Assembly (NCBI GenBank): GCA_902825945.1 | Contig: CADECY010000005.1 | Coordinates: 90,557 to 154,556 of the forward strand | Direction of reading: 5' to 3' | DNA length: 64,000 nt | Source of the DNA: an uncultured Acidobacteriota bacterium | GTDB lineage: Bacteria > Acidobacteriota > Terriglobia > Bryobacterales > Bryobacteraceae | Shown: one piece after another, positions 17,451-42,835 of the stretch | Layout: each line of letters starts with the position of its first letter | Numbering within the stretch: position 1 is the stretch's first letter | Notes under the pieces: model-generated | The model's input: only the letters and a program-made list of their open reading frames with translations | Databases searched by the model: none | What the model was told of the DNA's origin: nothing | Program-made: the position numbers and the translations under genes

Positions 17451-17540
17451 AAAGGGCTATTATAGAGATGGAAGCCATGGAGATCCTAGCGTTCATCGCG
17501 GTTTTCGCCGTCATGTTCCTCATCACTCGCTTCAGCGGCG

Positions 17541-18461
17541 GTGGTTGAGGGCCCTCCTGGCCGGGCCGTGGGTCCGGCGGTTGCAAGTAGACGGCTAGCC
17601 GTGTTCCGGATTTTCGCCGAGCCTGCGTCGAGCATCCTCAGCAAGACGAGCGGATTCATCGCCGAGGCGGGCTTTTCGCACTCGCTCACTCCGGCGCGCA
17701 ACTGCACGTTCGGCTGCACGTATTGCTACGTGCCCACGATGCGGATCTACGCGGGTCTGAAACCGGCCGACTGGGCGAGCTGGGGACAGTTCACTACCTT
17801 CAAACAAAACGCGGCCGATTTGTTGCGGCGGGCGATTCGCGGCGGCGAGTCGGTCTATTGCTCTCCTCTCGTCGATCCGTATCAACCGGTCGAAGAGCAG
17901 CAGCGGCTGATGCCCGCGATTCTCGAGGTGATCGCCGCACGTCCGCCGCGCGTGTTCACGATTCAGACGCGTGGTCCGCTGATCCTGCGCGATCTCGACC
18001 TGCTCCGGCGCGCCGCTGAGCGGACCGATCTGCGGGTGAGCTTTTCGCTGACGACGAATCGCGAACAGGTCCGGCGCTGGTATGAACCGCACTGCGCCCC
18101 GTTCGAGGAGAGACTCGAGGTGATCCGGGCTTTGCGCGCGGCCGGTATCCGGACCTTCGCGACGCTCGCACCGATTCTGCCGTGCGATCCGGAGGAGTTC
18201 GCCGCAGCGGCGCTCGAAGCAACGGCGGAGAACCTGATCGGCGACCCGTTCCACAACAGGAGGTCGAAGCCGCATGGAGCGACCACGCGCGAGCAGGCCG
18301 AGCGGGTGAGCGGCGTGCGTGGTTTCGAGCAATGGCATGATCCCGCGTTCCAGGCGGAAGTGGTGGCGCGGATCGCCGGGGTGGCGCGCTCGCGGGGCCG
18401 CCAGTTCGGAATCGGACCCGCGGGTTTCCGTTGGCTGGCCTGTTCAGCGGAAAATAGATAG
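17541..18461 (+). CDS. radical SAM protein (SplB/COG1533 DNA-photolyase-like family)
   Basis: CTFGCTYCY (CX3CX2C) about 55 aa from the start, with a family-like layout afterwards. The exact start is uncertain. Confidence 0.8.
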   Translation: MVEGPPGRAVGPAVASRRLAVFRIFAEPASSILSKTSGFIAEAGFSHSLTPARNCTFGCTYCYVPTMRIYAGLKPADWASWGQFTTFKQNAADLLRRAIRGGESVYCSPLVDPYQPVEEQQRLMPAILEVIAARPPRVFTIQTRGPLILRDLDLLRRAAERTDLRVSFSLTTNREQVRRWYEPHCAPFEERLEVIRALRAAGIRTFATLAPILPCDPEEFAAAALEATAENLIGDPFHNRRSKPHGATTREQAERVSGVRGFEQWHDPAFQAEVVARIAGVARSRGRQFGIGPAGFRWLACSAENR

Positions 18462-30776: not shown

Positions 30777-31808
30777 CTATCGTGTGGGGCGTTCGGCGCC
30801 GGAGCGGCGCATGTACGGCCCCCGGCTGCCGTTGGGCAAAGTGGTGGTCTGGTCAGTGCGGGCGAGCCCCAGTTGATCCCCCGTCAGTCCACGCGCACCC
30901 TTGAGGTTGGCTCCCCGCAGGTCGGCGCCAGCCAGGTACGCTCCGTCGAACTTGGCTTGCTGAAGATCGGCTCCGCTGAAGTCGGCTCCGCCCATCCGCG
31001 CCTCTCGGAAATCAGCGAGAGAGGCCTTGGCCTTGATGAAACAGCAGCGGCTGAGGTCGGTCGAGGTAAATCGGGCGCCGCCGCATTCGCTCTGCGTCAG
31101 ATTGCAGTCTTGCAATTGGATATTGGTGAGGTTGGCGCCGGCGAAAACGGCACCGTAGAACCGCGACATCTGGATGCGGGCCCGGTGCAGGTTAGCCCCT
31201 TCGAAGGTGACACTCGAGAAATCGCACCCGTGGATCTTGGCCTGCAGCAGTTGCGCGCGGTTCAGATGCGCTCCATTGAACTGGCACTGGTGCAGTGATG
31301 CCTCGAGCCAGCGCGACTCCTCCATATGCGCGTTGTGCAGCGATGCTTCATTCATCCGTGCTTCCGAAAAATTGGCGGCCAGCAGCCAGCAAGCCTGCAT
31401 CCGCGCGTGGTCGAGTTTGGCACCCGACAGGTCCGCTCGATTCAACGTCGCTCCGCGCAAGTCGGCGAACTGCAGTTCCGCTCCGCTCAAGTTGCTGTCG
31501 GAGAGTTCGGCATCGATCCACGACGTATGGTCGAGCAGCGCTCCCGATAAGTTGACGCGCTGCCAACGGACGTCGCTCATGGTGGCGCGGGTCAGAATCG
31601 CGCGCTCACCCTTGGGTGCCTTGATGAGCCAACTCTCGTGAAGCTCGATGATCCGCTTCAGGTTCCGATCTGTCAGACCGGCACCGCTCGCCGGGGGCGG
31701 CGCCTCGACGACGGAACTTCCCGCTCTGCGTAGTTCCATTCGTAGTAGCTCATCGTCGGCGGCGGGCCAGGCTTTAGGAAATTTTTCGCCCTTCCGCTGG
31801 GCTATCAT
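30777..31808 (-). CDS. pentapeptide repeat protein
   Basis: Long run of A(D/N)LXX repeats (ADLRGATLNRADLSGAKLDHARMQ...ADLQQAKFDGAYLAGADLRGANLKGA). The start may be further downstream. Confidence 0.85.
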   Translation of the reverse strand: MIAQRKGEKFPKAWPAADDELLRMELRRAGSSVVEAPPPASGAGLTDRNLKRIIELHESWLIKAPKGERAILTRATMSDVRWQRVNLSGALLDHTSWIDAELSDSNLSGAELQFADLRGATLNRADLSGAKLDHARMQACWLLAANFSEARMNEASLHNAHMEESRWLEASLHQCQFNGAHLNRAQLLQAKIHGCDFSSVTFEGANLHRARIQMSRFYGAVFAGANLTNIQLQDCNLTQSECGGARFTSTDLSRCCFIKAKASLADFREARMGGADFSGADLQQAKFDGAYLAGADLRGANLKGARGLTGDQLGLARTDQTTTLPNGSRGPYMRRSGAERPTR

Positions 31809-31816
31809 GGCGAGGA

Positions 31817-32770
31817 ATGGCGGTGATCACGGTTTCGGGACCGCCGGGATGCCGCGCCGAGGAAGCGGCGCGCGCCATCGCCCAGCGGCTCGCCTATCGA
31901 TTCCTTTCCGAGTCGAGCCTTCGTATGCTCATCGCCGAATCCTACGGCAGTGAAACCTCGGTGCCGCCGCCGCTCTACGCGCCCGCGCTCGAGGATCTGC
32001 TCGCGCATCTGGCTGCGCACGATCATCTGGTGATCCACTGGAATGGCGCCGAAACGCTCATGCCGTCGTTCCCCTCCTCGCTGCGGGTCGCGATCACCGC
32101 GAGCGAACGCTATCGGGCCGGTTCGCTGATGCTCGACCACCGTCTCGATCGCGCCGCGGCGCGCCGTCTCCTTTCCCAACTCGACACCGAAGCCCGGAAT
32201 CTCCGCCGCGCCCAGTTCCGCCGCGGGTCTGCCAAGCCAAGCGATTTCGATGTCGTTTGCAACGCCGAAACCATGGACCCGGGCGAGGAAGCCGCGCTCG
32301 TCTGTGCGATCGTCTCCCATCGCGGACTGACCGAAGCCGGGCTCCTCCCACCGGGGCGCCAGGCGGAGATCGAGTTCCACGCACGGCTCGCGCTTTCCCG
32401 GCTCGGCATCGCGCCAGCCGGGCGCCCAGCGCTACGCGCCAAGACCTTTGCCAACCGCAGCGAGCAGATCTTCGCCAACTTACTCGACTTCTATCGCATC
32501 GCCTGGGAGTATGAGCCGCGCACCTTCGCGCTGGCCTGGGACGGCAAGGGCACCGCGGCGGAGTCATTTACTCCGGACTTCTATCTTCCCGAATTCGACC
32601 TGTTCATCGAGCTGACCACCATGAAGCAGTCTTTGGTAACCAAAAAGAACCGGAAATTGAAACTCCTGCGCTCACTGTACCCGAACGTCAATATCCGGAT
32701 CTTCTATCAAAAAGACTTCCAGGATCTCGTCTTCAAATACGGCCTCGTGCCCACTCCGGCCAGCGCATGA
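31817..32770 (+). CDS. cytidylate-kinase-like (degenerate P-loop) protein with unassigned C-terminal domain
   Basis: MAVITVSGPPGCRAEEAARAIAQRL resembles cytidylate-kinase-like families but lacks the GK(S/T). The C-terminus TPDFYLPEFDLFIELTTMK is weakly nuclease-fold-like. Confidence 0.55.
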   Translation: MAVITVSGPPGCRAEEAARAIAQRLAYRFLSESSLRMLIAESYGSETSVPPPLYAPALEDLLAHLAAHDHLVIHWNGAETLMPSFPSSLRVAITASERYRAGSLMLDHRLDRAAARRLLSQLDTEARNLRRAQFRRGSAKPSDFDVVCNAETMDPGEEAALVCAIVSHRGLTEAGLLPPGRQAEIEFHARLALSRLGIAPAGRPALRAKTFANRSEQIFANLLDFYRIAWEYEPRTFALAWDGKGTAAESFTPDFYLPEFDLFIELTTMKQSLVTKKNRKLKLLRSLYPNVNIRIFYQKDFQDLVFKYGLVPTPASA

Positions 32771-33327: not shown

Positions 33328-34710
33328 GTGATACAATTGCCGCATGACTGCCAACAAGCTACCCATTGTTTTGCTGCATTAGCCATGTCCCTGCAGGCGC
33401 AGACACTGAACAGTCCAGCGAACGGGTCCACGGTCACCACCTCGATCGTGACTTTCAGTTGGAGTGCCGCGCCGGCCGCCGGCGAACGCTATGAAGTGCG
33501 CGTCTTTCACACGGTGACCGGCGCGCTCGAACTCAACATTTCATTCGGCCCCGGAATCAACAACGAACACTACACATTCCGTTCGGGAACTTACCGGGCG
33601 GACATTCGTCTCTGCAAGCCGCAGTGCGTCGCGGGAGCTTCGACGAACTTTACCGTGACTAACCGGACCGCCTCTCCGGGAACCGCCGCCAACGTGAACT
33701 GTACCACGGTCAATGACAATAATCAGAATCGCGTGGACTGCACCTGGAACGCCGTCGCGCTGGCTGACTTCTATCTGGCCCGCCTGGTGCAGGCTGGCAC
33801 CGGACCGGGGGGAGGAGCACTCACCGTTGCCGGGAACCAGATCGGATCCACTTCGGTCAGCCTCGTGGCGCCCAATGGTCCCCTCTCTTTCGTGGTCCAG
33901 GCATGTACTGGCGACGGCTGCGGGGGGCAAAGCAGCCCGGTCGTGGTGAATTCGAACTTTGGCTCGCCCCTCTTGCCGAGGATCTCCGAACCGATGGCCG
34001 GATCCGTCGTCGAGGCGGGCTCGAACGCTCCGGTTGCGCTCTTTGCGTGGAACCGCATTGCGGGGGACACGGGCGCTGGGGAGGTGGTCTACCGGCTCTA
34101 TATCAGCGATTTCTCCCGGAACGCGCCCGCCCTCGACGTCCTCACCACATCCAACTTTCAATCCGCCTTCCTGAATCCATCCAACCGCTATGATGCGCTG
34201 GTGATCGCCTACCCGAACTTTCTTCCGTTCGGGCCCACCTCGCCCATCACCGCTCCGGTTCAAGGACCGCCTGTTCCGCTCATCGCCCGCGGCCGGGTCC
34301 CGTCGAATCCGACCGTGAGCCAGCCTTGGTTTTCCGTCGGATTCGTCAACTTTCCGACACCCACGGGTCAGACCATGCGCGCCTCCTGGACGCCCCTTCC
34401 CGACGCTCAAGGACAGACGGGCAACCGGCTCTATCAATATCGCGTGATTGGCGTCTCGTTCGACTCTGGCATCAGGGCGACCGGTGTCACCCTCGAGAAC
34501 TCGGTCGATGTGCCGGCTTATGTGCCCGGCGGGTTCCCTGCCGGCAACGTACTGATCGGATATGTATTCGAGGTGCGCGCCTGCCAGCAGTTCGCGACCT
34601 GTACGGCAGGCTCGGAAACAGGCTGGGGGCCGTGGTCCGGTTCGCCGGGATCGGAAGGCTTCCGTTCCGAGTTCGGGATCAACAAGACATCGCGGCTGGG
34701 TGTCCCATAA
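33328..34710 (+). CDS. hypothetical secreted protein; the N-terminus is probably frameshifted (see finding)
   Basis: 460-aa Thr/Ser/Gly/Asn-rich ORF. The signal peptide appears split between two frames at a T-run (33369-33372). Confidence 0.5.
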   Translation: MIQLPHDCQQATHCFAALAMSLQAQTLNSPANGSTVTTSIVTFSWSAAPAAGERYEVRVFHTVTGALELNISFGPGINNEHYTFRSGTYRADIRLCKPQCVAGASTNFTVTNRTASPGTAANVNCTTVNDNNQNRVDCTWNAVALADFYLARLVQAGTGPGGGALTVAGNQIGSTSVSLVAPNGPLSFVVQACTGDGCGGQSSPVVVNSNFGSPLLPRISEPMAGSVVEAGSNAPVALFAWNRIAGDTGAGEVVYRLYISDFSRNAPALDVLTTSNFQSAFLNPSNRYDALVIAYPNFLPFGPTSPITAPVQGPPVPLIARGRVPSNPTVSQPWFSVGFVNFPTPTGQTMRASWTPLPDAQGQTGNRLYQYRVIGVSFDSGIRATGVTLENSVDVPAYVPGGFPAGNVLIGYVFEVRACQQFATCTAGSETGWGPWSGSPGSEGFRSEFGINKTSRLGVP

Positions 34711-34734
34711 CCCTCACTGCCCGGATGGAGAATA

Positions 34735-34759
34735 GGCCGGGCTCGATCCAAGCCCGGCC
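34735..34759. terminator. hairpin downstream of the displaced receptor 3' end and of the convergent gene
   Basis: GGCCGGGCT-CGATCCA-AGCCCGGCC: perfect 9-bp GC-rich stem. Lies between the stop at 34710 (+) and the stop at 34773 (-). Confidence 0.45.
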
Positions 34760-34772
34760 CGTCCCGAACCCG

Positions 34773-34957
34773 TCAAAAATGCAACCGTAGCGTGTACTGA
34801 ACCTCTCGGCCGTAGTTGACCTGCGAGGTGATCCCGCCGAACTGCGTGCTCGTCACCGTCAGATTCGGATTGCCCGGCATCACGCTGTTCGTCAGGTTGT
34901 AGCCCTCGAACCTCAGCTCGAGCTTGAACCGCTCGGTGAGTGAGAGTTCTTGGAAAG
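34773..34957 (-). pseudogene. displaced 3' fragment of the TonB-dependent receptor gene (last 56 codons + stop); left direct repeat of the islet
   Basis: 34807-34940 is identical to 37897-38030. The fragment encodes SLTERFKLELRFEGYNLTN...GREVQYTLRLHF*, identical to the receptor C-terminus. A 1-nt indel at about 34946 breaks the frame upstream. Confidence 0.85.
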
Positions 34958-35113
34958 TGCCTGAATCCGATCTTCGGGACAAAACATCAGCCGGACGCCG
35001 CGACTTTTGTGGGAAATGCGCGGCGGCGCGGTTGTTCACCCCACCGCCTTCCATCCTACGCCGGGACATTGTGTTGCGCCGGAGATTACCTTATCCTGAA
35101 TCCAGGCAGCTAT

Positions 35114-36697
35114 ATGCACAACATCGAAATTCCAGATGGTCAAGCGGAGGCACTCAAGGCCAAGGCTGCGGCAAAGGGCCTCACTTTGGAGTCGTGGCTG
35201 GCTCAGCTTGCGGAGCCGGTGGCGCCGGTCAAGTTTTTACGATTCTTTTGCGTATATTCGCACCAGGACGAGGCACTCAGGCAGGAACTCCATGCATACC
35301 TGGAGTCAAGGGGGCTGTTCGATGAAATGGAGTATTGGTACGACTATGAGCTGAAAGCCGGACAAGACTTCTCAAAAGAAATCGAACGGCGCCTCGAGCG
35401 CGCAGATGTGTTCTTGTTCCTGCTGAGTGACGCATTTCTCTCCTCGGACTTTATCAACAATAAGGAAGCAAAACGCGCGGTCGAGAGGTTCCACGCAGGA
35501 GAGGCGCTGATCATTCCTGTCGACCTGGGGTTGACCAAAGGTCTTCCCGGGCACCTAGCCTTTTTGTGCAACTTGCAGTGGCTGCCTGACTACCCCAAGA
35601 TGGCTCTCACCGGCAACCCGGTGCCTGCTGAATCCGGCTTGAATGAGGCTGCTGACGCGAAGCGTCAGCAGATCTATGAAAAGGTCGCCGAGGGTGTTCG
35701 CCGGGCGCTAGGGAATCGCAATCACTTGTTGATTTCTGACGAATCGCCATTCTCCAGCGAACTCCGATCCCGCCTCCTCGAGCGGCGATTCGACTTGGGC
35801 ATTGGGAGGGTGCACTCCTTTCGCGACCCGTCGAGCGGCGGCTTGCCCTACATCCGCCGTTACGAGAATTTGCTGAGCGAATTCCTGGGCGATAGGGTCA
35901 GGGACAACTGCGTCTTCACAATATATCCGGATGAGTCAGTCACTAATGGGGGCGAAGAGGCCGAACTCGTCAAGGAGCTGAGCGAAAAGGGCAAGGGGAT
36001 TATTTGCTTCGAGTCTGGAACCTCCCTCCTCGATGCGGCCGTGAAGGAGGAAAGCGGCGGACGAGCTCTTGCGGACAGAAATCCGGCCTGCGTGATTCGT
36101 ACGAAACACAGCAAGGCGGCCTCGGAATTGACTGTCGAGGTCGAGCGATTTCTTTCGGACGCACGAGGAATCAAGCATGTCGTGATGTTGCCTGGCCCCC
36201 CTACTCCGAACTCTCTAGAGCGCTGGGGAGAATACCATCAGTTCCTGTCCAGACTCCTGGGGCAATACTGCGGTTCCGCGCCTGATCCGAGCCGCGGCGG
36301 CGCCGTCGCGATTACCGTCAACTCCACTCCCCCCAACTGGTCCAAGGACCCCAATCTCGCCCGTGAGGTTTTCGACTGCCTTCGGCTCGACCCTGCTTCC
36401 GACTCCTTGTGCATCATCTGCGCTAACGATGAAGCTGCTCTTTGCGTCTCGGAAGCATTCGAACAACATGTCAACCTCGGCGAGGACTGTGCGATGTTCG
36501 ACCGGCGCCGAGCGCTGCTTGTCGGCTTTGATGGCATAAGTGCGATGCGCGAGGCCATTCAGGCCGGGAAGCCCATGCTTACGATGGCCGTCGATCAGGA
36601 GAGCATGTGCAGACGAGCGTGCGACGTATTCGCGAAACGGCCGTACGATGCAAAACCACACGAATTAGATGCCCGGATCGAACGGCCCATGCGATAA
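35114..36697 (+). CDS. TIR-domain protein: RHH-like N-terminus + TIR_2-type domain + PBP1 (LacI/RbsB-type) ligand-binding-like C-terminal domain
   Basis: TIR: FFCVYSHQDEALRQELHAYLES...YWYDYELKAGQDFSKEIERRLERADVFLFLLSDAFLSSDFINNKEAKRAVERFHAGEALIIPVDL. C-terminus: CIICANDEAALCVSEAF...LVGFDGISAMREAIQAGKPMLTMAVDQESMCRRACDVF. Start at ATG 35114; the track start at 34940 lies inside the repeat. Confidence 0.8.
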   Translation: MHNIEIPDGQAEALKAKAAAKGLTLESWLAQLAEPVAPVKFLRFFCVYSHQDEALRQELHAYLESRGLFDEMEYWYDYELKAGQDFSKEIERRLERADVFLFLLSDAFLSSDFINNKEAKRAVERFHAGEALIIPVDLGLTKGLPGHLAFLCNLQWLPDYPKMALTGNPVPAESGLNEAADAKRQQIYEKVAEGVRRALGNRNHLLISDESPFSSELRSRLLERRFDLGIGRVHSFRDPSSGGLPYIRRYENLLSEFLGDRVRDNCVFTIYPDESVTNGGEEAELVKELSEKGKGIICFESGTSLLDAAVKEESGGRALADRNPACVIRTKHSKAASELTVEVERFLSDARGIKHVVMLPGPPTPNSLERWGEYHQFLSRLLGQYCGSAPDPSRGGAVAITVNSTPPNWSKDPNLAREVFDCLRLDPASDSLCIICANDEAALCVSEAFEQHVNLGEDCAMFDRRRALLVGFDGISAMREAIQAGKPMLTMAVDQESMCRRACDVFAKRPYDAKPHELDARIERPMR

Positions 36698-36716
36698 GCG
36701 ATCACCGGAGAAATCC

Positions 36717-37880
36717 ATGGCGAACCCAGCCCTAAGGAGTTCCGTTCGGAGGATCACTGACCTGAATGCGGGCGAGTTTCCTTTGGGCGCCCTCGTGGAG
36801 CACCCGATTTCGGCCATTGAGAGCATGGCTTGTGACACTGGGATGGCCAGTCGACCGGAGTGCGATGTCGGCTGTTTGGCTTGTTGCACCAACAGCGTCC
36901 ATTCTGCCCATGCCGTCGGACCGGTGACATTGTTGTCCCCTCTCTTGCTCACCGCTATCTCGCGTATGGCTGCGGAGCTTGCCCGGGGTGGAACTCACAT
37001 CATGTCAATAGATCGCTTTAACTTGTTCAGCGGATCGAATGAGATGGACCATCCACATTGCGTCGAACTTAGGGAGATTCTGTCAGCGTTCTTCGATGAG
37101 GTGCACAACAGGCCTCTGGGGGCGGTCTCCTCGGACGTGGTATTTCATCTATCTAGATCTCCGCACTTCAGGGCAAACCTGCAGTCGGTGGTACAGAAGC
37201 CGCTGCTGTGGGACAACGTCTGTATGGCGATTGACGAACAGATCGAGTTCCACAGCGCCCGTGAGTACTCTCGACACATGGAGGACCTGGAATGGGTGTG
37301 GAGAGTCCTTCGCCCGGTGCTCGGCCGCGAGGTGAGCCACGCGCGGAGAGAGAGGCAGGGCGAGCCCAGGGTTATCCTCAACATGCTCGTCCCCGATTCA
37401 GGGTCGGTATTCCAGGACAAATATCGTGCGCTCTATCCGGGTGGCCCCCTACGGGCAACCACGTTCGAGGAGTTGGCTCATCGCTACGTAACTCCCTTTG
37501 TCGGCGATATATTGGATGATGGCTCTGCTGTTCCTCGAGAGCACCGATTCACCACCCGAATCGCCAGACTTGCCGCGGTACCCGACTCGAGGGTCTTCGT
37601 CGGGCAAAACTACTACGCTCCAGCGGGCAGGGCTCGACTTCTCGTCCGGTTCAACGACCCAGGCTCCCGTCCGCCCAATGCCATCCGGACCAAGATCTAC
37701 CCGACAGGCGAGACCACGTTTCGGATCGCGGCCTCATTTACAACCTCCCCAGCATCCGAGGAGGAAGTTGCTGTTCATCCGAGCCGGACTCCCGCTTGGT
37801 TTCAGGCCTTGCGGGAGTTCGTCATTGACGTGGGAGATCGCGCCGGTAAAGCGTGGCTTGAATCAAAAATGCAGCCGTAG
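36717..37880 (+). CDS. hypothetical protein (387 aa), partner of the TIR gene
   Basis: ATG with GGAG 6 nt upstream, 19 nt after the TIR gene stop. No family recognised. One CX3CX2C cluster (ECDVGCLACC). The last 6 codons lie antisense within the receptor 3' end. Confidence 0.65.
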   Translation: MANPALRSSVRRITDLNAGEFPLGALVEHPISAIESMACDTGMASRPECDVGCLACCTNSVHSAHAVGPVTLLSPLLLTAISRMAAELARGGTHIMSIDRFNLFSGSNEMDHPHCVELREILSAFFDEVHNRPLGAVSSDVVFHLSRSPHFRANLQSVVQKPLLWDNVCMAIDEQIEFHSAREYSRHMEDLEWVWRVLRPVLGREVSHARRERQGEPRVILNMLVPDSGSVFQDKYRALYPGGPLRATTFEELAHRYVTPFVGDILDDGSAVPREHRFTTRIARLAAVPDSRVFVGQNYYAPAGRARLLVRFNDPGSRPPNAIRTKIYPTGETTFRIAASFTTSPASEEEVAVHPSRTPAWFQALREFVIDVGDRAGKAWLESKMQP

Positions 37881-38048
37881 GGTGTACTGCACTTCGCGGC
37901 CGTAGTTGACCTGCGAGGTGATCCCGCCGAACTGCGTGCTCGTCACCGTCAGATTCGGATTGCCCGGCATCACGCTGTTCGTCAGGTTGTAGCCCTCGAA
38001 CCTCAGCTCGAGCTTGAACCGCTCGGTGAGCGAGAAGTTCTTGGAAAG
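37863..38048 (-). repeat. right direct repeat = functional 3' end of the TonB-dependent receptor gene
   Basis: Matches 34773-34957, beginning exactly at the stop codon. 5 mismatches in the first 36 nt (all synonymous), then 134 identical nt. Confidence 0.85.
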
Positions 38049-41000
38049 GGTCGAGTCGAGCTGCCAGAAGTTCGGACCCGTGATTCCGGAGTATTGCAGC
38101 GGATTGGTGCGCGGCGTGAACGGAGTCGCCTGCTTGAACACGCTCGTATTGAACCAGCGCGACCATTCGCGCGTGGCGTTGCCCGGATCCCCCGTGACAT
38201 CGAGTTGCCCGAACCGCAGGAAGTTGCCCGAGTTCCACATGAAGATGTGGCTCGTCGACCAGCCGCCGAGGATCGCGTTGAGAACCGGATGCATGGTGGA
38301 GCCGAATCTCTGGCCCTTGCCGAACGGCAGGTCGATGGTGCTGCCGAGCGTCATGCGATGGCGCGGAAGGGTCGAGGGCAGCATCGTCAGGTTGTTCGCG
38401 AACTCGTCGGGAGCGTTGAAGTAGCCGCCCGTCGATTCCTGATTGTAATTGTAGCCCCACACCACGCTGTAGCCGTTGGCGAAACGGCGCTGGACGCGAA
38501 GCTGAACCGCCTTGTACCGGTTCTCGACTCCGGGCAGGAAGCCTTCTGTCAGATCGCCGTACTGCGGATACGGCCGGAGCAGCGTGGAGAGCGGGACGGT
38601 GCGCTGGCCGCGAAGTTGTCCCGGCATCACGCTGGCGGGCGTGCCGAAGAAGGGGTTCGGGACCGCCGCCGAGAGAGCGGTCTTGTAGTCGTAGCCGAAC
38701 TGCGGATTGACCATGTTCAACTGGCGTCCGAAGCCTGCGTTCCCGCCTTGTCCTTCCGGCACCATATTGTGTCCGAAGTTCATGAAGAAGGTGCCGTCGA
38801 CCTTGAGTCCGGCGACGAGATCGCGCTCAATCGTGAAATTGAAGCGATCGTTCATCGGGGTCTTCAGATTCTGCCGTGACCATGTCGCGGCGCCACCGAT
38901 ATTGGTGTAGCGTCCGGTGGTGCGGCCGAGCGGCGCCACGAGCGGATTCGACGCCGGGAACGGGTTCGAGAGCACGCCCTGCGGAACGCCCTGCAATTGC
39001 ACGGGTCCATTGGAAGTGACCGAGAAGCCGTCCGTCGCGGGCAGGCGCCACGAGTATCCGAGGATGCTCATGACCGGAACAGCGTAGCGCGCATAGCCGA
39101 CCCGAACCGCGGTCCGGTCGTTCACGCGGTAGGCGATGCCGACGCGCGGCAGCAAGTTCCGGCGCGGCGCGTGATAGAGTCCCTTGGCGTCATCGGTCGC
39201 ATAAACCCAAGCGCCGTTGAATGTAGGCTTCGGAGCGCCGCTGATCGTTGCCACCTGCGGCGGCATGACCGGAGTGTTCGCGCCCTGGAATTCGGGAATC
39301 GGATTACCGAGGTCGAGATAGCGCGACAGGCGCAGTAGGCGTTCCGACGGCGCGGTTTCGTACTCCCAGCGCATGCCGAGATTCAACGTGATCCGGCGGT
39401 TCAACTTGAAATCGTCCTGGAAGAAGAGGCCGTATTGATCCTGCTCGGTGTAGCGCGGCGCCACGTAGTTCGCGTTGAGCGAGTTGTCGATCGCGCCGAG
39501 TTGGAACGTGGCCCACGAACTTCCCGTGTTGAGCAGATCGGGCGCGAGGAACGTGTTCGCGGTGGGTGTCGCGTTGAACGGGAAGCTGCCGAGATTCGGC
39601 AATTGCGAGTACTCGAAGGCGTGGCGGTACGCCATTCCGAACTTCATGTAGTGGCGGCCGCGATCGTGTCCGAGGCTTCCTTGATAGGAATACTTGCGCG
39701 GACGATAGCTCCACCAGCTCGACTTGCCGAAGGTCGCGCCGCCGACGTTGAGCGCTGGGTAGTAGACTGCTGGCATGTCGGCGAGGTACGGCTTGTACCA
39801 GGCGTTGCCGGGCCAGAACTTCTCGAGTCCCTTCTCGCCGATCTGGGCCCAGGCGGAATCGTATTCGTCTTCCGAGTAGACGACGCCGAGGCGGAAGTTG
39901 AACACTGTCCGCGCGCTGAGCGTGTAGACGGAGTCGAACGCGCCATTGAGCGCGTCCATCAGTCCGCCGTTGTCGGACGAGGTGGCTTGCGTGCCGCCGT
40001 AGTTGTTATTGTCGAGCCGCGTGCGGATGACGCTGTAACGGGCGAAGGTGCGCCACTTCGGCGTGATCATCCAGTCGGTGCGATTCGAGAAGTTCCAGTA
40101 GTTGAGGAACCACGCATAGCCGGTCCGATAGTTGTTCACGCCCGTCGCGTCGTCCCCCGCGCCGTTCGGCTTCCAGATGTCGGCCAGGAACAGGCGCGAG
40201 GTGGGGTCGAAGCGCGATTGCGGAACGATGTTTCCCGCGAATGGCGTACGCGTGACCGCGTTCGTCTGCGTGTTGGTTTGTGTCGTCAGCGGATCGAAGA
40301 TCGGACGCATCACGCCCTGCCGGTTGAGCGAGCGTGTGTAGTCGCCCGCGCGCTCGAGGTCGGTCGGCAGCGTCATCACCTTCGTGTAGGGCTGCCGGTT
40401 GTTCCACTTTTCGAACGTGACGAAGTTGAAGAGCTTGTTCTTGACGATCGCGCCGCCGAAGGTACCACCGTAGACGTGATTCCGGACCACGTTCGGCGCC
40501 CGCGTGAACGCGTTCGACACGGCGTTGAACTTGGGGTTGCGGCCGAAGTAGTACGCACTGCCGTGATACTCGTTCGTGCCCGCCTTCATGCCGACGTTCA
40601 TGACACCACCCGCCGAGAATCCGGACTCGGCGTCGATCGAGTTTTGCTGCACGGTGAACTCCTGCACCGCGTCCATCGGTGGCGCGTACGATCCGCGGGA
40701 GCCGACGCCGATCGGCGATCCGTCGATCTGCACTTCGTTGCGGCCGCTGGTTTGTCCGCCGACATCCACTCCGGTGGTCGAGAGCTGATAGAAGGGATTG
40801 CGCTTGGAAACATCCGAGTATCGATTCACCACCGCGGGATCGAGCAATGCCAGCGTGAACGGATTCCGCGCGAGCACCGGAAGCTCCTTGAGCATTTTGC
40901 CGTCGATCGTCTGCGAAAGGGTCGTGGTGTTGAACTGGATCTCGACGGCGGAATCGGAGACGGTGACCGTCTGGTTCACGTCGCCTACTTTCAGGGCCAT

Positions 41001-41297
41001 GTTGACCGAGAGGTCAGACCGGACCAAGACCTGCACGTTCTCGTTCGTGGATTTCCCGAAGCCTTGGAATTCGGCGGTCACCGAGTAGGTGCCGGGCTCA
41101 ACGAAATCGAACAGGTAGTGTCCGGTTTCGTCGGTGGTGCGCGTGGTGGCGGTCTTCGTTTTGGCGTTGACCAAGGTGACCGTGGCGCCAGCGATGGCGG
41201 AGTTGGTGGGGTCGGTGATGATCCCCTGGACCCTTCCGCGATAATCCTGCGCGAAGGCAATGCCGCACGCAAGCAGCGTGATCAGCAGTCTGTTCAT
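37863..41297 (-). CDS. TonB-dependent receptor with CarboxypepD_reg-like N-terminal domain
   Basis: Signal MNRLLITLLACGIAFAQ, then RGRVQGIITDPTNSAIAGATVTLVN...GHYLFDFVEPGTYSV, a barrel region of over 1000 aa, and C-terminal ...YTLRLHF. Start set at ATG 41297. Confidence 0.9.
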   Translation of the reverse strand: MNRLLITLLACGIAFAQDYRGRVQGIITDPTNSAIAGATVTLVNAKTKTATTRTTDETGHYLFDFVEPGTYSVTAEFQGFGKSTNENVQVLVRSDLSVNMALKVGDVNQTVTVSDSAVEIQFNTTTLSQTIDGKMLKELPVLARNPFTLALLDPAVVNRYSDVSKRNPFYQLSTTGVDVGGQTSGRNEVQIDGSPIGVGSRGSYAPPMDAVQEFTVQQNSIDAESGFSAGGVMNVGMKAGTNEYHGSAYYFGRNPKFNAVSNAFTRAPNVVRNHVYGGTFGGAIVKNKLFNFVTFEKWNNRQPYTKVMTLPTDLERAGDYTRSLNRQGVMRPIFDPLTTQTNTQTNAVTRTPFAGNIVPQSRFDPTSRLFLADIWKPNGAGDDATGVNNYRTGYAWFLNYWNFSNRTDWMITPKWRTFARYSVIRTRLDNNNYGGTQATSSDNGGLMDALNGAFDSVYTLSARTVFNFRLGVVYSEDEYDSAWAQIGEKGLEKFWPGNAWYKPYLADMPAVYYPALNVGGATFGKSSWWSYRPRKYSYQGSLGHDRGRHYMKFGMAYRHAFEYSQLPNLGSFPFNATPTANTFLAPDLLNTGSSWATFQLGAIDNSLNANYVAPRYTEQDQYGLFFQDDFKLNRRITLNLGMRWEYETAPSERLLRLSRYLDLGNPIPEFQGANTPVMPPQVATISGAPKPTFNGAWVYATDDAKGLYHAPRRNLLPRVGIAYRVNDRTAVRVGYARYAVPVMSILGYSWRLPATDGFSVTSNGPVQLQGVPQGVLSNPFPASNPLVAPLGRTTGRYTNIGGAATWSRQNLKTPMNDRFNFTIERDLVAGLKVDGTFFMNFGHNMVPEGQGGNAGFGRQLNMVNPQFGYDYKTALSAAVPNPFFGTPASVMPGQLRGQRTVPLSTLLRPYPQYGDLTEGFLPGVENRYKAVQLRVQRRFANGYSVVWGYNYNQESTGGYFNAPDEFANNLTMLPSTLPRHRMTLGSTIDLPFGKGQRFGSTMHPVLNAILGGWSTSHIFMWNSGNFLRFGQLDVTGDPGNATREWSRWFNTSVFKQATPFTPRTNPLQYSGITGPNFWQLDSTLSKNFSLTERFKLELRFEGYNLTNSVMPGNPNLTVTSTQFGGITSQVNYGREVQYTLRLHF

Positions 41298-41320
41298 TGC
41301 GAGACCTCTCTTTCGTGGAA

Positions 41321-41401
41321 CGCGCACAACGGACTCGCTCCGGCGCCCGGACATTGGCGTGTTGCTCCACTGTTGGCGCCGCGCCTTCGCGGCCTGTGCG
41401 C
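41321..41401 (-). repeat. MITE/REP-like small repeat, copy B (leader region of the receptor gene)
   Basis: Both termini are exact reverse complements of the copy A termini (21 nt and 14 nt, extending to about 27-30 nt with 1-2 mismatches). The central ~25 nt is rearranged. Confidence 0.6.
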
Positions 41402-41527
41402 TCAAGGCCGGGCCTCGCCAGCGTCGGAACCAGGACGCGGAAAGCGCCGGCGAACTCTTGAATCGTGTGGTTATTCTATGTCCGCCGGCGCTCCGGAGTC
41501 AATTCGAAACCGAGTGATCGGCTGTTA

Positions 41528-42835
<1,308 letters not shown>

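Follow-up and report, generated by a model that had tools for sequence, protein, structure and literature searches.

A very rare and undescribed fusion of a cytosolic sugar-binding-protein fold with a predicted NAD-destroying TIR domain in an uncultured member of the Bryobacteraceae

The open reading frame at 35114..36697 (+) in a 64,000-nucleotide stretch of DNA from an uncultured soil-type acidobacterium of the Bryobacteraceae (contig CADECY010000005.1; the whole stretch is referred to below as the window) encodes a protein of 527 residues, in which a TIR domain predicted to destroy NAD+ is joined to a cytosolic fold of the sugar-binding-protein type, a combination that is both undescribed and very rare. 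The first-pass annotation had treated this gene (gene 1) as a standalone entity, an incomplete picture: gene 1 opens a conserved two-gene module, in which it is followed by a partner gene, the product of which probably resembles the radical S-adenosylmethionine (SAM) enzymes. The architecture of gene 1 is that of a LacI-type protein with the helix-turn-helix (HTH) replaced by a killing domain, and the module as a whole looks like a small-molecule-gated immune or suicide switch built from new parts. The reading that we favor, with a probability of about 0.38, is that of a two-gene, small-molecule-gated effector module in which the partner would make the ligand, in the manner of CBASS.

The C-terminal part of gene 1 defines the family to which the results below refer. 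A phmmer search with residues 175-527 against 1.84 billion cluster representatives returned 44 proteins at E < 1e-3; one of them, P0035, is a cadherin-repeat protein, which was rejected as a family member and excluded from the conservation counts as a false positive. The reading frame of gene 1 is free of stops, and a protein identical to its product is on record once (P0001), without a name. An AlphaFold 2 (AF2) model built from the family alignment is of high confidence (pLDDT 88.3, pTM 0.87), and in it the C-terminal ~330 residues form a complete type-1 periplasmic-binding-protein (PBP) fold with two Rossmann-like lobes. When compared with the Protein Data Bank (PDB) using Foldseek, this part superposes on the allose, ribose and myo-inositol binders and on the cores of CcpA, MalR and FruR over ~330-345 columns (E down to 1.5e-10, probability 1.0, target-normalised template-modeling (TM) score 0.7-0.79), and the family profile finds the allose- and ribose-binding proteins of the PDB at E ~1e-10. 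These comparisons confirm the PBP1/LacI-core assignment that had been proposed in the first-pass annotation. In Pfam, the single sequence matches Peripla_BP_4 below threshold over residues 327-505 (E = 1e-4, 22.5 bits against a cut-off of 35.1); matches at E < 0.01 are found in 23 of 44 relatives, the best with E = 2.4e-11, and the majority of family members score under the Pfam threshold. Neither a hydrophobic N-terminus nor a transmembrane segment is present in the gene 1 product (maximum Kyte–Doolittle mean over 19 residues, 1.19), so that the protein can fairly be taken as cytosolic, as had been claimed for its C-terminal domain. The marks of a periplasmic substrate-binding protein, a signal peptide and an ABC-transporter or chemoreceptor partner, are likewise missing, as the N-terminus is occupied by the TIR domain and no transporter genes are adjacent.

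To compare the putative binding cleft with that of a characterized sugar binder, the family was aligned by hhalign with the Escherichia coli ribose-binding protein (RBP), the sequence of which was checked and is identical to 1URP and 2DRI; the probability of the match is 94-96%. The global alignment of the N-lobe onto RBP was unreliable, and the C-lobe and hinge contacts alone were used. The residues that we take to contact ribose, following the literature on 2DRI, are R141, F164, N190, D215, D89 and Q235. The first four correspond to R370 (conserved in 41/43 proteins), W409 (38/43), N438 (37/43) and D473 (39/40) of gene 1, and the equivalent of Q235 in the family alignment is Val. The D89 equivalent is position 331, a mapping of low confidence in the N-lobe, which is D or N in 29 of 43 proteins and Lys in the window protein; the Lys codon lies at 36104-36106, and the two relatives nearest to the window protein also have Lys or Arg here, possibly a sign of altered ligand specificity in this subclade. 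The full set of conserved cleft residues comprises F213, E300-S301-G302, T330, R370, W409, C436/N438/D439, G471/D473/G474 and T490. The alignment thus suggests that the sensor keeps a sugar- or ribose-type binding cleft and would bind a ligand there. The comparison with the RbsB-type pocket that the first-pass annotation had called for therefore comes out in favor of its idea of a ligand-gated NADase, a good reading given that the cleft conserves the counterparts of the residues with which RBP contacts ribose.

The N-terminal output domain of gene 1 is recognized by Pfam TIR_2 over residues 44-139 (E = 2.3e-13, 51.2 bits, cut-off 28), and PADLOC gives matches at the TIR level only, the best to a ThsB model (E = 1e-20, 94 of 319 profile positions). 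Searched against the PDB, the family profile finds AbTIR with E = 1.1e-14. In pairwise alignments E118 falls on the Glu of 'NYELDG' in AbTIR and of 'YEL' in the TIR chain 7UXR_A, and position 118 is Glu in 33 of the 36 aligned family members. The BB-loop region WYD..LK.G is aligned as well, with the stretch WYDYELKAGQDF matching WYDEFTLKVGDS of AbTIR. The alignments with characterised TIR NADases, the TIR_2 match and the conservation of E118 uphold the original identification of a TIR domain with a catalytic Glu, and we infer that the domain is an NAD+-depleting output with E118 as its predicted catalytic residue. Between TIR and PBP-like module runs a long linker helix, which is the most divergent stretch of the protein, with 14-29% identity to the closest relatives as against 42-55% in the domains.

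The two genes of the module are closely linked. Loci were fetched and searched with hidden Markov models of the PBP-like module and of the partner, and 15 of the 16 that were informative have the partner next to the PBP-like gene. The partner homologue, of ~380 residues and with 35-70% identity, lies immediately downstream of the PBP-like gene, and the stop and start codons of the two genes are often overlapping or at most 20 nt apart. The partner is found with the TIR version as well as with those carrying SIR2, Metallophos, CHAT or HTH. A TIR-PBP gene followed by the partner is found in the window (and L002) and in loci L001, L004, L005/6, L007, L093, L094/96, L095, L099 and L101, with TIR_2 confirmed in L093, L095, L096, L099, L101 and L005. 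The same order recurs with an N-terminal domain without assignment (L003) and with SIR2 (L009), Metallophos (L010), CHAT (L011/12) and XRE-type HTH (L102) domains, and on the contig of P0023 a DUF4062-PBP gene is followed by an overlapping downstream gene that is a candidate partner. Two arrangements differ. In L097 (1463-3432) and L098 (1247-3216), the partner comes first and is followed, with overlapping stop and start codons, by the gene for a 266-residue TIR_2 protein lacking the PBP module; the ~120-residue C-terminal part of this protein is not PBP-like and has no Pfam match, and it could take the place of the PBP module in sensing the ligand. In L008 (4704-8951), the TIR-PBP-like gene P0012 has no partner and is convergent with the gene for a 923-residue TIR-WD40 protein, with two Uma2-family genes nearby.

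The same sensor is combined with many different outputs. TIR takes the N-terminal position in 23 of the 44 family members, and the position is otherwise held by SEFIR-type TIR, SIR2, DUF4062/NIR, calcineurin-like phosphoesterase (in P0026 and P0047), CHAT, TIR plus trypsin, HTH, EAD11 and ThsB-type TIR domains. A preprint lists six types of NAD+-depleting defence effector domain (bioRxiv 10.64898/2026.09.04.749371), and TIR, SIR2, SEFIR, calcineurin-like phosphoesterase and DUF4062/NIR, all of them found in the family, are five of those six. The pattern means that the N-terminal domain would be an interchangeable output, the PBP-like module a constant sensor and the partner a constant enzyme. 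Because the N-terminal domain is swapped in relatives, the PBP module is best regarded as the sensor and the TIR domain as an output and not as a Thoeris-type signal maker; the suggestion of signal production in the first-pass annotation is unlikely, the place of TIR being held elsewhere by SIR2, DUF4062, Metallophos, CHAT, trypsin or HTH domains. The hosts of the family include Acidobacteriota and Bacteroidota, its spread is patchy, and some of the module loci adjoin TraG, Mu-type or DDE transposases, DUF4145, a caspase gene or a TIR-WD40 gene. A scan of the GTDB representatives (185,579 species) with the family alignment gave 43 pattern matches and no relative, an absence that holds at the sensitivity of that scan.

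The partner is itself an unusual protein. Its sequence has no match in Pfam or NCBIfam (E ≤ 10 in both), nor in PADLOC or the PDB, and a profile search of 5.8 billion proteins with the partner returned 10 proteins only, none of them annotated. Three cysteines, C49-x3-C53-x2-C56 (CX3CX2C, encoded at 36861-36884), are invariant in 12 aligned partner sequences, and the motif is present in every further partner locus. There are ~50 additional invariant positions, including SNE (107-109), SSD (138-140), DN.C..DEQ (166-175) and R.V..N.L.P (218-226), and because CX3CX2C and polar residues of the kind found in active sites are invariant, the partner is likely to be an enzyme. CX3CX2C is the canonical cluster motif of radical SAM enzymes, except that the residue preceding the third Cys is Ala or Gly here and not the usual aromatic one. 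The AF2 model of the partner (pLDDT 79.8) consists of alternating beta and alpha elements, to which a beta-rich region is added at the C-terminus, and the Cys loop, which is of low confidence or disordered, follows the first predicted strand (31-34). As to the partial (beta/alpha)6 TIM-barrel core of the superfamily, the fold matches in the PDB are led by the radical SAM enzymes DesII, TsrM and HydE, with E ~1e-2. In BFVD, the top match is a phage Radical_SAM protein (E = 3.1e-5, probability 1.0), and ranks 2, 4, 8, 9, 17, 20, 28 and 32 are SPASM, maturase and Fe-S proteins. The TM scores of the fold matches are only 0.2-0.4. Together, the motif and the model make 'radical-SAM-like' a description in which we have good confidence, and the partner would be expected to carry a [4Fe-4S] cluster and to use SAM. 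The window also holds a canonical radical SAM enzyme, 17 kb upstream at 17490..18458 (+), with a match to PF04055 (E = 8e-14) and the motif CTFGCTYC. The two proteins are unrelated apart from the Cys motif, and because hhalign of the partner profile with this enzyme aligned that motif alone (7.5% probability), the partner was not filed under the Radical_SAM family by sequence.

The most economical reading of the module is that sensor and enzyme share one sugar- or nucleoside-like molecule, the binding of which in the PBP cleft gates the TIR NADase. In the version that we favor, the partner would make such a molecule, probably in answer to infection or to a phage-derived substrate, and the molecule would bind the cleft of the C-terminal 'Venus-flytrap' PBP1/LacI-core sensor of gene 1. 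Closure of the lobes would be relayed by the linker helix and would activate the N-terminal TIR NADase and its E118, probably by way of oligomerization; the activated domain would then hydrolyze NAD+, leading to cell arrest or death in an abortive infection. In relatives, the outputs under control of this pair of sensor and partner would include further NAD+-depleting domains, as well as proteases and a DNA-binding HTH. Radical SAM enzymes generally act in biosynthesis, and the prokaryotic viperins (pVips) apply radical SAM chemistry to nucleotides in antiviral immunity. Because of this biosynthetic habit and the viperin precedent, and because the partner is nearly always retained, making of the ligand by the partner is slightly favored. 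A role in conflict is suggested by several signs, namely the rarity of the family (44 in 1.84 billion), its patchy spread, the mobile-element neighbors, the low GC content of the module and the fast divergence of the sensor-effector gene. Extended to its full form, the proposal is that a new and divergent radical SAM family uses radical chemistry, not nucleotidyl transfer or NAD cyclisation, to make a second messenger derived from a sugar or nucleoside, and that this messenger is read by a cytosolic PBP fold that fires interchangeable effectors, namely NAD+-depleting domains of five kinds, proteases of two kinds or a transcription factor; we put this joint proposal forward tentatively.

Several observations weigh against a ligand-making, radical-SAM-type partner and a role in defence. 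At the level of sequence, the partner has no match to Radical_SAM (PF04055), the hhalign comparison with the radical SAM enzyme of the window went no further than the Cys motif, the TM scores of its fold matches are low and the Cys loop is modeled with low confidence. The window protein has Lys and not Asp at the position equivalent to D89 of RBP. The TIR-PBP gene of L008 lacks the partner, an absence easier to reconcile with a partner that can be dispensed with than with one whose signal is obligatory. The module in the window lies among housekeeping genes and in no recognised defence island, and it appears to have been inherited vertically, at least partly, in at least three related Bryobacterales genomes. 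Finally, the order of effector then enzyme and the existence of a version with HTH plus enzyme also fit consumption of the ligand, either LacI-like or Metis-like.

Consumption of the ligand is the alternative with the closest precedent. In Metis, MisA combines an N-terminal PUA-like sensor with a metallophosphatase while the HAD phosphatase MisB breaks down basal m6dAMP, is dispensable for defence and also pairs with the effector MisC (bioRxiv 10.1101/2025.11.05.686725); Vesta (VstA/VstB) is a metabolite-sensing NAD+-depleting system akin to Metis, again with a constant enzyme that removes basal ligand and that defence can do without (bioRxiv 10.64898/2026.09.04.749371). By analogy, the PBP module would sense a metabolite that accumulates under phage infection or stress, and the partner would destroy or convert the basal ligand, thereby keeping the NADase off in healthy cells. 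The gene order of the module is that of Metis, L008 shows that a TIR-PBP gene can occur without the partner, and the HTH-PBP gene plus enzyme of L102 resembles a textbook regulator responding to the substrate of the enzyme encoded next to it. We consider this arrangement only slightly less likely than the favored one. Against it, scavenging would be an unusual task for a radical SAM enzyme, which is slow, oxygen-sensitive and SAM-consuming; ~10 of 11 family members looked up retain the partner, often with translational coupling, which suggests more than an accessory role; and the folds of sensor and enzyme are unrelated to those of Metis. A Thoeris-like division of labor, in which the TIR domain would make an NAD-derived signal and the partner would be the signal-responsive effector, is recommended by the ThsB model as the best PADLOC match to the TIR domain (E = 1e-20) and by the two-gene operon with a TIR gene, itself a selection criterion for Thoeris candidates. 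It is very improbable nonetheless: the TIR domain is exchanged for proteases, phosphoesterase, SIR2 or HTH while the partner stays constant, and because a signal generator could not be replaced in this way, signaling of the Thoeris type does not fit; moreover, the partner has no SLOG, Macro, transmembrane or other known signal-receiving or killing domain, and a sensor fold is fused to the TIR domain itself.

Two further explanations dispense with either the ligand or the defence role. PBP folds occasionally serve protein-protein contacts, the two genes are tightly coupled in translation and the AF2 model of gene 1 is a compact multi-domain one (pTM 0.87), all of which would suit a PBP-like module that binds protein or serves as a scaffold, with the partner or a phage protein docking onto it, or a partner acting as an antitoxin-like inhibitor. 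The conservation, however, is concentrated at the inter-lobe cleft positions that contact sugar in RBP, the invariant CX3CX2C and active-site-like polar residues of the partner point to an enzyme, and one inhibitor for TIR, SIR2, protease, phosphoesterase and the non-toxic HTH alike is implausible, which leaves docking or inhibition at low odds. The module could also be metabolic or regulatory, for instance by sensing a carbohydrate or cofactor intermediate of the pathway in which the partner acts, with the TIR domain working on a nucleotide substrate in a housekeeping capacity. Its synteny among housekeeping genes in the window, L001 and L004, the existence of the HTH version and the GH77 and glycogen genes that adjoin the module in L005/L006 and L008 speak for such a function; a set of output domains typical of abortive-infection effectors, a family that is extremely rare, patchily distributed among taxa and flanked by mobile elements in places, and the rapid divergence of the sensor-effector gene speak against it, and we regard it as improbable.

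Set beside known systems, the module combines familiar logic with unfamiliar parts. In CBASS, Pycsar and type III CRISPR systems, fusions such as TIR-SAVED, TIR-STING, the Pycsar TIR proteins and Cat1 TIR-CARF likewise join a ligand sensor to a TIR NADase, a conserved enzyme gene lies in the same operon and the killing domain is swapped on a constant sensor. In contrast to these systems, the sensor here is a PBP1/LacI core and not a SAVED, STING, CARF or cNMP-binding domain, the partner is radical-SAM-like and not a CD-NTase, cyclase or Cas10, and the effector is N-terminal to the sensor; an assignment to CBASS or Pycsar failed, since the partner has no PADLOC, Pfam or NCBIfam match to a CD-NTase or pyrimidine cyclase. 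Metis and Vesta share with the module a two-gene operon with the sensor-effector first, a small-molecule-processing enzyme second and NAD+ depletion as the output (here predicted), as well as the pairing of a constant enzyme with alternative effectors; a calcineurin-like phosphoesterase output is also found in the gene 1 family. Membership in Metis was rejected, as the PUA-like sensor of MisA and the HAD phosphatase MisB stand against a C-terminal PBP1 sensor and a radical-SAM-like CX3CX2C partner without a Pfam match, and there is no relationship in sequence or fold. The LacI/GalR and XRE-PBP regulators share the order of N-terminal output and cytosolic PBP1 core, and one family member combines an HTH with the partner; the output in the window is TIR instead of a DNA-binding domain, and the family motifs CFESG, C-G/A-N-D-D and GFDG set it apart from LacI/GalR as a separate and very small clade. 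Thoeris resembles the module in being a two-gene operon with a TIR protein, the one here being nearest to ThsB models; it was rejected as an assignment because the TIR domain is swappable and shares its polypeptide with the sensor, and because no known Thoeris effector or signal-binding domain occurs in the product of the second gene. With the pVips, DesII and BtrN, finally, the partner shares CX3CX2C, and its best folds are radical SAM enzymes including the sugar-nucleotide enzyme DesII; unlike the pVips and the radical SAM families, it has no sequence match, including to the PADLOC pVip models, and is paired with a dedicated sensor-effector.

These comparisons bear out the earlier impression that the sensor-effector combination was undescribed, within PADLOC, the Pfam architectures examined and the literature searched. 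PADLOC 2.0 has no model for the whole gene 1 protein or for the partner, and no homologue with the full architecture is functionally annotated, let alone the many annotated homologues that would have spoken against novelty. A description of the TIR-PBP1 architecture was not found in the literature searched, which included a 2025 TIR survey, the NIR preprint and the Metis preprint, a passing mention of such a fusion elsewhere being possible; a conflict-systems paper of the Aravind group deals with extracellular PBP domains only, in a different system. Given its extreme rarity and its absence from model organisms, the family would have been missed by screens of defence islands. If the favored reading is true, it adds a new sensor fold (the PBP1/LacI core) and a new class of enzyme (radical-SAM-like) to the parts by which small molecules are coupled to suicide effectors. 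The sharing of one sensor-enzyme pair by TIR, SIR2, SEFIR-type TIR, DUF4062/NIR and calcineurin-like phosphoesterase domains would provide an independent genomic argument that these are equivalent, NAD+-depleting outputs. Identification of the ligand would bring to light a new molecule of one of two kinds, a second messenger produced by radical chemistry or an infection-associated danger metabolite. Moreover, the PBP fold is a well-understood and engineerable scaffold, and a natural set of PBP-gated NADases, proteases and HTH proteins could serve in biosensors or kill switches.

The N-terminal extension of the window protein stands apart from this architecture. The only Pfam matches of residues 1-39 are to three ribbon-helix-helix (RHH) families, all of them sub-threshold (FitA-like_RHH, E = 0.011; ParD, 0.022; NikA-like, 0.18), and the AF2 model places two helices in it, at 11-20 and 25-32; the GC content by codon position of this region appears coding. 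A counterpart was sought in the 43 relatives of gene 1, none of which has the segment, and the RHH was rejected as a conserved part of the architecture. The resemblance to an RHH protein that had been noticed from the sequence thus stands as a weak one, and its place in a conserved three-part architecture does not, as the segment is unique to the window protein, where it may be a lineage-specific add-on, which is unproven. A GTG at 35216 is an alternative start, and the N-terminus resulting from it would resemble that of the relatives.

The features of the module in the window and the repeats on either side of it are listed in Table 1.

Table 1. Positions of the two genes, the domains of gene 1 and the flanking repeats in the window.
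Feature	Position	Strand	Remark
Left direct-repeat copy, 173 nt	34773..34945	.	Duplicated remnant of the end of a TonB-dependent receptor gene; upstream boundary of the module
RHH-like N-terminal extension of gene 1, aa 1-39	35114..35230	+	Specific to the window protein
TIR domain of gene 1, aa ~41-165	35234..35608	+	Predicted NAD+-cleaving output; codon of predicted catalytic Glu E118 at 35465-35467
Long linker helix of gene 1, aa 177-199	35642..35710	+	From DSSP on the AF2 model; connects TIR to the PBP-like module
Type-1 PBP / LacI-core-like two-lobe sensor module of gene 1, aa ~201-527 and stop codon	35714..36697	+	
Partner gene, 387 aa (P0048), putative divergent radical-SAM-like enzyme	36717..37880	+	Directly downstream of gene 1
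Right direct-repeat copy, 173 nt	37863..38035	.	Functional 3' end of the TonB-dependent receptor gene 37863..41405 (-)

The two 173-nt copies are 97% identical, with a spacing of 3090 nt, and the repeat begins exactly at the stop codon of the TonB-receptor gene; all five mismatches fall in the 33 nt next to that stop codon, the remaining 140 nt being identical. In a short-read assembly of this organism (L002, 3016 bp) the sequence is interrupted within the repeats; L001 and L004 have a single copy, the left one being absent. The last five codons of the partner and its stop (…K M Q P and stop, 37863-37880) lie inside the right repeat; these final 18 nt are shared with the 3' end of the TonB-receptor gene, which runs convergently. 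Since the partner of L004 also ends in …E M Q P, this junction would be ancestral to the window and L004 genomes. The metagenomic contigs L004 and L001 are syntenic with the window, with hpt, the module and then the TonB gene, and a further housekeeping neighbor in the window is MetY (41528..42826), with 87% identity to an Acidobacteria MAG and 84% to Bryobacteraceae MAGs, which places the window in an uncultured member of the Bryobacterales. GC content is 0.55-0.58 in the module against 0.61-0.64 outside it, and GC at third codon positions is ~0.67 against 0.77-0.84 in the flanking genes. A scan of 34600-38200 for sigma-70-like promoters, which is uninformative for Acidobacteria, found none.

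Divergence between the window and L004 is strikingly uneven. The flanks share 84% DNA identity and the partners 74% at the DNA and 70% at the protein level, as compared with 41% protein identity and no blastn match for the TIR-PBP gene (4849-6279 in L004), in which the TIR domain shares 45%, the PBP-like module 42% and the linker 14%. This pattern suggests diversifying selection or allelic replacement of the sensor-effector gene alone, and such a fast-evolving sensor-effector would be typical of conflict genes.

Several other genes lie near the module. In L005 (9069-12101), L006 (4808-7840) and L008 (8-4657), genes of glycogen and alpha-glucan metabolism, for a GH77 4-alpha-glucanotransferase, a GH57 protein and a GlgC-like NTP transferase, are found directly beside it in two arrangements; this neighborhood could be a genomic hotspot shared by related genomes or a hint at the ligand. 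Between hpt and the module of the window, at 33328-34710 (+), lies a gene for a 460-residue protein with weak fn3/Ig-like matches; because it is absent from the syntenic L001 and L004, it would be either an insertion in the lineage of the window or a deletion in the others. Upstream of hpt, a pentapeptide-repeat protein (30777-31808, -) and a 317-residue protein (31817-32770, +) are encoded, both of which are kept in L004, where the orthologue of the 317-residue protein has a weak cytidylate-kinase-like match.

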